A stretch of 64,000 nt of DNA from positions 19,027 to 83,026 of the forward strand of contig JAAYHC010000063.1 in NCBI GenBank assembly GCA_012735535.1, in the 5' to 3' direction. This stretch comes from Bacillota bacterium. GTDB taxonomy: Bacteria; Bacillota; UBA5301. Shown here one piece after another: positions 42,395-43,073 of the stretch (the first letter of the stretch is position 1; every line of letters begins with the position of its first letter). A program made the position numbers and the translations under genes. Below the pieces are notes generated by a model. The model made no database searches. It had not been told where the DNA came from and saw nothing but the letters and a program-made list of their open reading frames with translations.

Positions 42395-42399
42395 GTGTG

Positions 42400-43028
42400 A
42401 ACTCCTATTCTAAGGTGGCAGCTTCATGGGTAAAGATTGTGGCATAGGTCCAGCTGGAGTTTCCCAACAGCTTACCGGTCGTCACCGATCCGGCGATTTC
42501 TCTTTAAAAGCTGCTTGGCAGTGTCACCATCTGCCATGCTGAATTACCACTAAGTCCACACTACAATCCCCACAAAGCCCGGCCGTAGACCGACAGTCTA
42601 GGAGATTTCCTCGGCAGGTCACGAACCGCTCTAGCCTCTTTTGCAAAGGTGGTTTCAAGTAGCATAAGGCTCCTGCCATAGGCCATAGGCAAGAACTTGA
42701 ACCTACTCCCCACCAACTTCGCTCAAGGCAGGCTACTCTGCACCCAACACTATCCTATGTACGGTTCGCATCGGTGAGCAGGTTCTCCCTAAGCCGTAGT
42801 TCCCCCCTTAACGGTTCCCCACGCACTTAGGTCTCCGCGGTACTAGGGTCCACGCCCGTATGCCATTACGGATCGCCCCAATACCTTAACCCCCAGCACC
42901 AACCCCAGACTGGGCGTCCAAAGCCAGCACCAGAGACTTCATCGATGTGCCCTTTGACGGATCTTTAGGCCCGTCTTCAAGCAGCTGTGACCTGACTAGA
43001 ATACTGCGCCACCTTAGATTCTTTTCGC
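42400..43028 (-). ncRNA. ole: OLE (ornate large extremophilic) RNA candidate, ~620 nt
   Basis: Only large ORF-free region in the window, with strand-consistent GC-rich structured sequence. Own extended -10 promoter. Located ispA-[RNA]-oapA-dxs, the signature synteny of OLE RNA. Lacks RNase P (GGAAAGUCC), tmRNA (CCA/tag) and SRP domain IV motifs. Ends are approximate. Confidence 0.6.
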
Positions 43029-43029
43029 T

Positions 43030-43065
43030 ACGATTATACCATACAGCAGGGCCGAGTCTCAAGTC
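43030..43065 (-). promoter_or_regulatory. Sigma-A-type promoter for the OLE-like RNA (TTGAGA-18-TGGTATAAT, extended -10)
   Basis: Minus strand: TTGAGA at 43057-43062, 18-nt spacer, TGG + TATAAT at 43033-43041. Starts 12 nt after the upstream gene stop codon. Confidence 0.55.
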
Positions 43066-43073
43066 GGTCCAGG

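Follow-up and report, generated by a model that had tools for sequence, protein, structure and literature searches.

Comparative sequence analysis of a predicted full-length OLE RNA gene upstream of oapA in an uncultured spore-forming Bacillota bacterium

We report that a 64-kb stretch of contig JAAYHC010000063.1 (64,000 nucleotides, nt; hereafter the window) almost certainly encodes, on the minus strand between positions 43028 and 42399, a full-length OLE (ornate, large, extremophilic) RNA. The RNA gene is located directly upstream of an open reading frame (ORF; 42394..41858, minus strand) that belongs to the OapA family, predicted to be the partner of OLE that anchors it at the membrane. The host, a spore-forming member of the Bacillota, is uncultured and its sequence has already been publicly released; its sporulation genes in the window include those for Spo0A, SpoIVB, SpoIIIAA and SpoIIIAB. 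OLE hosts are typically anaerobic or extremophilic Bacillota. OLE RNA has been known since 2006 and is represented by a curated Rfam model. The copy described here is a routine full-length member of this well-studied family in a textbook context, and is as such already known. Covariance-model matching, covariation among homologs, conserved protein-binding and dimerisation motifs, a conserved predicted proximal promoter and the gene neighbourhood all bear on this identification, and no counter-evidence to it was found among these data.

Mechanical tiling of ORFs leaves 679 nt (42395..43073) unoccupied, which is the largest gap in the window; the other gaps are at most approximately 230 nt, one of them containing a T-box leader, and the genes on the contig are nearly all on the minus strand. 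The original prediction, made from the sequence alone, had described this gap as the sole sizeable ORF-free stretch, and this description holds. A second apparently non-coding gap of 532 nt (55534..56065) was considered and rejected, since it corresponds to spoIIIAB (55549..56070, minus strand; Spore_III_AB match, 2e-34). This gene lies within a 308-amino-acid (aa) ORF that overlaps spoIIIAA and is dropped when the longest ORFs are tiled, which generates a false gap; a permissive Rfam scan of 55534..56065 gave only a chance-level match.

To assign the RNA to a family, covariance models of all 4,227 Rfam families were scanned against the whole window. Two matches were obtained in total, RF01071 (OLE) in the gap and a T-box leader at 6478..6256. 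The OLE match (43028..42399, minus strand) scores 488.6 bits (E = 2.6e-140), where 50 is the gathering score, and spans positions 1-616 of the 616 model positions without truncation, and no other family among those scanned matches the gap. The candidate OLE RNA of the original prediction was thus borne out by the covariance model, and the case that had been named against it, a match to another Rfam family in its place, did not arise. The length of the RNA is 630 nt according to the Rfam match, and its core, from the 5' to the 3' strand of helix P1, is 602 nt. The region had also been labelled GC-rich, and a new high-GC homolog had been considered valuable. We rejected this label, since the GC content of OLE (53.7%) equals that of its flanks (53.9% and 52.8%; window, 53.1%) and ranks 12th among 73 homologs, in which the GC content reaches 61%. 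Moreover, a survey of the GTDB in 2024 had already reported 2,822 OLE representatives in Bacillota, covering all major classes except Negativicutes (PMC11332333).

For comparison, an alignment of 26 OapA homologs was used to fetch 80 loci from species-representative genomes, among the matches listed, in which the OapA identity to the window did not exceed 49%; four further loci were fetched for the two closest relatives, giving 84 loci in total. The OapA proteins of these two relatives (loci L081 and L083) are 72% and 70% identical to the window OapA, and their OLE RNAs are 83% and 85% identical to that of the window at the nucleotide level; outside this three-member clade the OLE identity is only 53-64%. 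With the window OLE as query, nhmmer detected an OLE RNA directly upstream of, and on the same strand as, the oapA homolog in 81 of the 84 loci. One of the three loci without a match is cut by a contig end, and in the other two, L048 and L068, a search of the whole loci gave no OLE at the Rfam gathering score either. The oapA-like genes of these two loci encode proteins that are 39-44% identical to the window OapA; they may be OapA paralogs, ole may be located elsewhere in these genomes, or the loci may carry highly divergent variants. Typical ole-oapA loci were also present in metagenome-assembled genomes (MAGs) labelled Actinomycetota (L019, PWYO01000232.1) and Desulfovibrionaceae (L032, CAZMLU010000010.1), which fits the published remark that the few OLE matches outside Bacillota probably represent mis-binning or horizontal transfer.

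The secondary structure was examined in 73 full-length OLE copies aligned with MAFFT on sequence only, and base pairs were counted for the Rfam structure together with P1, which was read directly from the sequence (AGGUGGC / GCCACCU). Standard pairs occupy 85.9% of the 11,503 cells, compared with 39-49% when the 3' partners were slid by 1-3 columns, and 137 of the 165 pairs show changes on both sides. None of 500 shuffles reached the observed covariation values; these shuffle controls ignore phylogeny, whereas the slid controls do not. The multi-stem architecture, which the original prediction had put forward for such a check, is accordingly supported by compensatory changes. When threaded on the RF01071 consensus structure the window sequence forms 144 of the 158 model pairs as canonical pairs, and the minimum free energy (MFE) of the 602-nt core is -250.7 kcal/mol (z = -4.7 compared with 20 dinucleotide shuffles). 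Comparing the window with L083 and L081, 11-13 pairs differ at both positions and 10-12 at a single position while remaining canonical; in a further 5-6 differing pairs, one sequence has a canonical pair and the other does not.

The 5' 53 nt are left unpaired in the Rfam consensus, and in the MFE structure this region pairs as P1, P2 and P3/P3.1, which correspond to helices described in the literature. Among the 73 homologs the P1-P3 pairs are 89.3% paired, compared with 32-50% in the slid controls. Specifically, P1, which is missing from the Rfam consensus structure, has 7 base pairs (bp) with 97.3% of the cells paired and two-sided changes in six of the seven pairs. P2 consists of GCAG/CUGU and UCUAG/CUAGA, two helices that are 99.7% and 100% paired. 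In P3, the stem proposed to span the membrane (PMC12265935), 15 of the 16 pairs show two-sided changes, and 79% of its cells are paired in the sequence-only alignment. At the other end of the molecule, the outer helices of the 3' domain are 96-99.8% paired with many compensatory pairs. This domain also holds a GNRA-capped mini-helix of 2 bp in a stretch that Rfam draws as unpaired; it is 98.6% paired, the outer pair being GC in 60, AU in 7, CG in 3 and UG in 1 of the sequences and the inner pair GC in 71 and AU in 2. In the window the changes at 42501 (G to A) and 42496 (C to U) together make a compensatory swap from G:C to A:U, and the same is seen in L036. We considered the mini-helix as a new structural element and rejected this, because the "loops of P14a" are mentioned in PMC7936274; it is probably the published P14a, which would make it a gap in the Rfam consensus structure only. 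Finally, P8 contains a 24-nt stretch, CGAUGCGAACCGUACAUAGGAUAG, that is identical in the window, L081 and L083 despite the overall identity of 83-85%, and this suggests a constrained clade-specific element; the loop insertion in P8 could be a lineage-specific contact site.

OLE RNAs are approximately 600 nt long, and about a quarter (25%) of their nucleotides hardly vary. Among 70 OLE RNAs outside the three-member clade, 176 alignment columns are near-invariant (conservation of at least 97%), and the window retains 169 of these. The seven departures are mostly benign: 42859 (G to A) is one side of a compensatory replacement of C-G by U-A in P6.1, 42501 and 42496 are the two halves of the mini-helix swap, and 42462 and 42459 result from the way in which a one-nucleotide insertion is aligned. 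The departure at 42963 is an A-to-G change of the fifth A in the P4 loop (consensus CCUAAAAA), and it is common to L081, L083 and L078.

The segments to which functions have been assigned in other OLE RNAs are also present. The A-rich loop of P4 is a centre of RNA-RNA dimerisation, and the P5.1 and P6.1 loops are complementary kissing-loop partners (PMC12265935); in P9, a GGCC palindrome constitutes a symmetric kissing-loop dimer contact, for which covariation has been described (PMC12286853). Judged by sequence, the putative dimerisation motifs are all kept in the window, i.e. CCUAAAGA (with the one A-to-G change), CGCCCAG, AAUGGCAU and the GGCC loop. Palindromes linked to OapA lie in or near P2 and P4a (PMC12265935), and in the window the P2-proximal palindromic CUAG and the AUCGAU of the P4a region are candidate OapA sites. 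The latter palindrome is part of the J4/5 block, which also holds the 5' half of a kink-turn (k-turn; U84 and C85, then GAUGAAG). The k-turn bound by OapC is formed by J4a/5 and J5/6, with U84-G and C85-G in the C helix followed by G-A pairs (PMC9723947). The window numbering coincides with that of Halalkalibacterium halodurans at U84 and C85 and, as far as the sequence requirements of the k-turn go, the window segments AUCGAUGAAGU and GUUAAGG (42890..42884, 3' half) equal the consensus. The primary OapB site, P13, needs a GNRA loop and a one-nucleotide bulge, and the GNRA loop of P14.1 represents a weak secondary site (PMC7936274). Both predicted sites are kept, P13 having a GUGA tetraloop and a single bulged nucleotide and P14.1 a GUGA loop; in our reading P13 is re-paired with G498-C508 and a bulged A499, which removes the sole A-C mismatch. 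The presence of P7, P8 and a long P9 shows that this RNA is of the full-length type and neither of the published variants 1 and 2, P7 in itself ruling out variant 2.

As noted in the original prediction, a near-consensus promoter-like site with an extended -10 box is located 12 nt past the upstream stop codon (43062..43033, minus strand; 11 of 12 positions matching). A scan for single promoter sites is not significant alone (two sites in 2 kb, with 1.5 expected), and the promoter is instead supported because it is conserved across relatives and loci. The sequence TATGnTATAAT does not vary between the window, L081 and L083, where the surrounding intergenic DNA has diverged beyond alignment, and L083 likewise has a -35-like box, TTGAG. 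More generally, 55 of 72 OLE loci (76%) have TGnTATAAT, with one mismatch allowed, in the 40 nt that precede P1, compared with 1.4% of 13,622 background windows, and a proximal extended -10 promoter therefore seems to be characteristic of the OLE family in general. The box mostly ends 12-15 nt before P1 in the family and 19 nt before it in the window. In H. halodurans, OLE expression is increased by a factor of more than 100 by the proximal promoter, and 5' rapid amplification of cDNA ends maps the 5' end to the start of P1 (PMC3413148); the predicted window promoter matches this experimentally shown promoter, and transcription would start near 43026, approximately 12 nt before P1.

The 3' boundary had been placed at the ribosome-binding site of a gene for a small protein with four transmembrane segments. 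This agrees with our data: the Shine-Dalgarno sequence AGGAG (42405..42401) follows P1 directly and the downstream protein has four hydrophobic segments. The placement of AGGAG after P1 is kept in L081 and L083, and the three-member clade is unusual in how closely oapA follows OLE, with P1 ending 7 nt before the Shine-Dalgarno sequence. In the window no terminator-like site was found between P1 and oapA and, given the position of the Shine-Dalgarno sequence, transcripts from the ole promoter must thus enter oapA, at least to begin with.

This arrangement, with the ATG only 18 nt after P1, could also be taken to mean that the region is a long cis-acting structured 5' leader of an oapA-dxs operon that yields no discrete stable RNA. 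We consider this unlikely. In H. halodurans OLE is a single, very stable RNA (half-life approximately 3 h) that acts in trans in a ribonucleoprotein (RNP; PMC3413148), and the window copy keeps the whole set of predicted protein-binding and dimerisation motifs described above. Moreover, two other loci, L037 and L065, have canonical terminators between ole and oapA, and co-transcription with oapA is the norm in the family and compatible with processing. Related to this, the 300 nt that follow P1 contain terminator-like sites in 33 of 80 loci (41%), compared with 14% of background windows. We rejected these as proof of a discrete 3' end, since their positions are scattered and fall in a T-rich membrane-protein gene, and regard them as a weak lead. 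The only such site in this part of the window, a hairpin followed by a U-tract inside oapA, is kept in L081 and L083, with one compensatory change from an A-U to a G-C pair that coincides with the substitutions D31G and S35P. We likewise regard it as no more than a lead, as the same pattern could arise from constraint on the coding sequence of a T-rich gene for a membrane protein; that this hairpin acts as an attenuator or 3'-end signal setting the OLE:OapA ratio, with the terminal helices of OLE gating oapA translation, seems improbable to us.

Other explanations of the gap fare worse than that of an untranslated leader. Small ORFs exist mechanically (51 aa at 42524..42679 and at 42561..42716; 58 aa at 42886..43062), and one or more small proteins might thus be encoded. 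These ORFs are missing from L081 and L083 in spite of 83-85% identity, the three sense frames of the gap contain 30 stop codons, and the substitutions relative to the two relatives lack 3-nt periodicity (36/35/31 and 35/29/26), base pairs being preserved instead; the small-ORF reading was rejected on these grounds and we regard it as very improbable. A decaying, non-functional OLE relic might be suspected from the seven departures at near-invariant columns and the 14 non-canonical model pairs. Three of these departures are halves of compensatory swaps, two more are alignment effects, and the Rfam score is level with those of the relatives (492.7 and 492.9 bits). The identical OLE sequence is also present in independent assemblies (L085, L087 and L088), many metagenome assemblies carrying the sequence of the window organism, and both the promoter and an intact oapA are conserved, so that a relic can be given hardly any credence. 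The probability that the gap instead encodes a different large non-coding RNA (ncRNA), e.g. RNase P RNA, transfer-messenger RNA, signal recognition particle RNA, 6S RNA, a group II intron, GOLLD, ROOL or similar, is vanishingly small, as the Rfam scan gives OLE alone at this site and its only other match, the T-box, lies elsewhere.

Several points nevertheless limit what can be said of this OLE RNA and of OapA, though none contradicts the identification. The apical part of P9 and one P14 helix are only 51-63% paired among the homologs; most likely this is an effect of the MAFFT alignment, because length-variable regions are poorly handled by a sequence-only aligner. A few model pairs in the window copy are non-canonical, in apical P9 and in apical P7, where four such pairs make the hairpin irregular. 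For the protein, the window OapA gave no CNNM match in Pfam at an E-value of 0.01 or better, and the OapA family profile gave no sequence match to the solved structures in the PDB. Finally, we infer the start, the 3' end, the abundance and the discrete, stable nature of the RNA in this organism by analogy with its relatives.

OapA proteins are approximately 20 kDa in size, with four predicted transmembrane helices and a conserved cluster of basic residues. The predicted OapA has four hydrophobic segments according to hydropathy (residues approximately 5-30, 32-61, 95-118 and 122-144) and a K/R-rich tail, with 10 K/R among the last 39 residues and a net charge of +9. Residues D50, E61, H65, R83, D94, D98, GGK141-143 and K147 are invariant among the 26 homologs. 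The database holds 262 homologs, the top one (100% identical) being NCBI NLY56273.1, "hypothetical protein GX058_07170 [Firmicutes bacterium]". The locus should be annotated as ole/oapA; NCBI at present calls the window OapA hypothetical. The Pfam family CNNM/DUF21 (PF01595) is weakly matched by 16 of the 26 family members (best E-value 2e-7).

The gene order in the window is accC, two Asp23/yqhY genes, DUF2273, nusB, a TsaD-like gene, xseA, xseB, ispA, DUF212 and ole, followed by oapA, dxs, tlyA, nadK, argR, recN, spoIVB and spo0A; the spoIIIA operon is located further upstream of ole. Genes for isoprenoid synthesis, DNA repair, translation, NAD kinase and cell-envelope stress are characteristic of the surroundings of ole, and the window agrees with this. 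The order given in the original prediction needs correction at two points: DUF212, not ispA, is directly upstream of ole, and argR, which had been omitted, separates nadK from recN. The flanks were long enough for comparison in 69 loci; ispA is located upstream of OLE in 64 of these (adjacent in 47), and dxs and tlyA are downstream of OLE in 51 and 58, respectively. In 13 of the 69 loci (19%; L006, L014, L022, L029, L037, L038, L054, L055, L061, L065, L078, L081 and L083), which represent several lineages, DUF212 directly adjoins ole, and the arrangement in the window is therefore a recurrent variant and not unique. The same position is filled in L081, L083 and L085, and the DUF212 proteins of the relatives are called at 148-149 aa. 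DUF212 is a membrane-protein gene, putatively lipid-phosphate-phosphatase-like, whose recurrent association with ole is unmentioned in the OLE literature examined. The true start of ispA is probably near 44423, since the gene products of relatives are called at 291-293 aa. The genes oapB (ybzG), oapC (ybxF) and rpsU are normally unlinked to ole. The coordinates of the features are listed in Table 1.

Table 1. Features of the predicted ole-oapA locus and its flanks (window coordinates)
Feature	Position	Strand	Remarks
OLE RNA gene	42399..43028	-	Limits of the Rfam RF01071 match
Structured core, P1 to P1	43014..42413	-	602 nt
-35 box TTGAGA	43057..43062	-	Promoter match 11/12, 18-nt spacer
Extended -10 box TGgTATAAT	43033..43041	-	Ends 19 nt before P1
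P1 5' strand AGGUGGC	43008..43014	-	Pairs with GCCACCU at 42413..42419
P2 5' strand (GCAG..UCUAG)	42996..43007	-	In near-invariant GCAGUAUUCUAGUCAG block; pairs with CUAGACUGU at 42593..42601
P3/P3.1 5' strand	42979..42994	-	Pairs with 42615..42631; 8 + 8 bp, one-nucleotide bulge; MFE pairs
P4 hairpin, A-rich loop CCUAAAGA	42956..42975	-	Helix 98.9% paired
J4/5 block AAAGGGCACAUCGAUGAAGU	42936..42955	-	Identical to family consensus
P5/P5.1 long hairpin, loop CGCCCAG at 42916..42910	42890..42936	-	20 bp, 96% paired, 15 pairs compensatory
P6/P6.1, loop AAUGGCAU at 42867..42860	42839..42885	-	P6.1 99.7% paired
P7 hairpin, 44 nt	42788..42831	-	All 17 pairs covary, 79.7% paired
P8 hairpin, 44 nt	42738..42781	-	15-nt insertion relative to the Rfam model; alignment columns 337-445
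P9 long arm, 96 nt, apical-loop palindrome GGCC (42686..42678 region)	42634..42729	-	Basal helices 87-97% paired
3' domain ("domain 2")	42420..42612	-	GAGGAAAUCUC hairpin, small hairpin and P12-P15 multi-helix region
P13 hairpin UGGCAG-A-UG[GUGA]CA-CUGCCA	42516..42536	-	93.6% paired, all 8 pairs compensatory
GAAA-capped 2-bp mini-helix GA[GAAA]UC	42495..42502	-	Consensus GG[GAAA]CC; alignment columns 719-726
P14.1 hairpin, GUGA loop	42474..42494	-	Second GNRA tetraloop
P1 3' strand GCCACCU	42413..42419	-	3' edge of the structured RNA
oapA Shine-Dalgarno AGGAG	42401..42405	-	7 nt past P1 3' strand, 6 nt before ATG
oapA, 178 aa	41858..42394	-	ATG at 42394, 18 nt after P1
Hairpin and U-tract inside oapA codons 28-39	42277..42311	-	L081 6086..6116; L083 6087..6115
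DUF212 / divergent PAP2 gene	43074..43538	-	PF02681, 3.2e-48; immediate upstream neighbour
ispA (farnesyl diphosphate synthase)	43542..44582	-	polyprenyl_synt; NF045485 FPPsyn 314 bits (cutoff 275)
dxs-tlyA-nadK-argR-recN	36050..41861	-	Downstream cluster; order same in L081 and L083

Two further observations concern the flanks. The TsaD/Kae1-like gene between nusB and xseA (46034..47101, minus strand; 355 aa; Pfam TsaD and HypF_C_2) is also present in L081 and L083, and occupies the slot of folD in Bacillus subtilis. The T-box leader (RF00230, 6256..6478, minus strand) scores 120.2 bits against a gathering score of 93, and directly 3' of it is an ORF (3396..6224, minus strand) for a 942-aa class I aminoacyl-tRNA synthetase with an IleRS zinc finger, presumably ileS under the control of a tRNA-Ile T-box.

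The OLE family is characterised by an abundant and stable RNA, a membrane localisation and stress phenotypes of deletion mutants. By analogy with what has been described for H. halodurans and Clostridium, a sigma-A-type promoter of its own would drive strong transcription of OLE that reads through into oapA-dxs, and the RNA would fold into two domains joined by the P3 stem. Dimers would form via the A-rich loop of P4, the kissing loops of P5.1 and P6.1, and the palindrome in the loop of P9. OLE would be held at the membrane by OapA, a putative transporter of divalent cations that resembles CNNM/DUF21, OapB would bind the P13 GNRA hairpin, and OapC or bS21 would bind the k-turn region around P5. 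The resulting RNP may aid tolerance to short-chain alcohols, cold, excess Mg2+ and poor carbon sources (for the stress roles and mechanism of OLE see PMC3413148, PMC10898510 and PMC12265935).

OLE is intriguing as a 600-nt RNA that is proposed to span the membrane, and one more copy from a public MAG sharpens no open question; nothing in the window copy bears on the chemical activity of OLE. Known helices, among them P1-P3 and the GNRA mini-helix that are unpaired in Rfam, gain support from the compensatory changes of the three-sequence clade. Possible descriptors of the family are the extended -10 box upstream of P1, found in 76% of the loci, and DUF212 as neighbour in 19%.

Among known systems, GOLLD, ROOL and raiA/ModT are also large structured ncRNAs for which the biochemical function is unknown or only partly known, and GOLLD and ROOL share with OLE the ability to form homo-oligomers (PMC12286853). 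In contrast to the window RNA these have other gene contexts and no membrane-protein partner, and there is no match to them in sequence or structure. On the protein side, the OapA family is weakly similar to the transmembrane domain of the MpfA/CorB/CNNM (DUF21) transporters, but at 178 aa OapA comprises the four-segment transmembrane module only and lacks CBS and CorC domains; OLE RNPs and MpfA proteins have been proposed to be functional counterparts (PMC12265935). Variant 1 (TANB77) and variant 2 (RF39) OLE RNAs (Fernando and Breaker 2024, PMC11332333) belong to the same family and have the same conserved core as the window RNA. Variant 1 has shortened P7-P9 and has often lost the P13 OapB site, whereas the window copy has full P7-P9 and an intact P13; variant 2 is without P7 and P8, both of which are present here with 44 nt each. 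With full-length OLE (RF01071), as in H. halodurans, Clostridium acetobutylicum and C. botulinum, the window RNA shares P1-P15, 169 of the 176 near-invariant positions, the putative dimerisation loops, the GNRA loops of P13 and P14.1, the k-turn sequences and a predicted proximal promoter of its own, as well as oapA directly downstream and the ispA/dxs/tlyA/nadK/argR/recN neighbourhood. It differs from these in the G replacing the fifth A of the P4 loop, the 15-nt P8 insertion with its clade-conserved loop, the irregular apical P7, the DUF212 gene between ispA and ole, and the short distance of 18 nt from P1 to the start of oapA.

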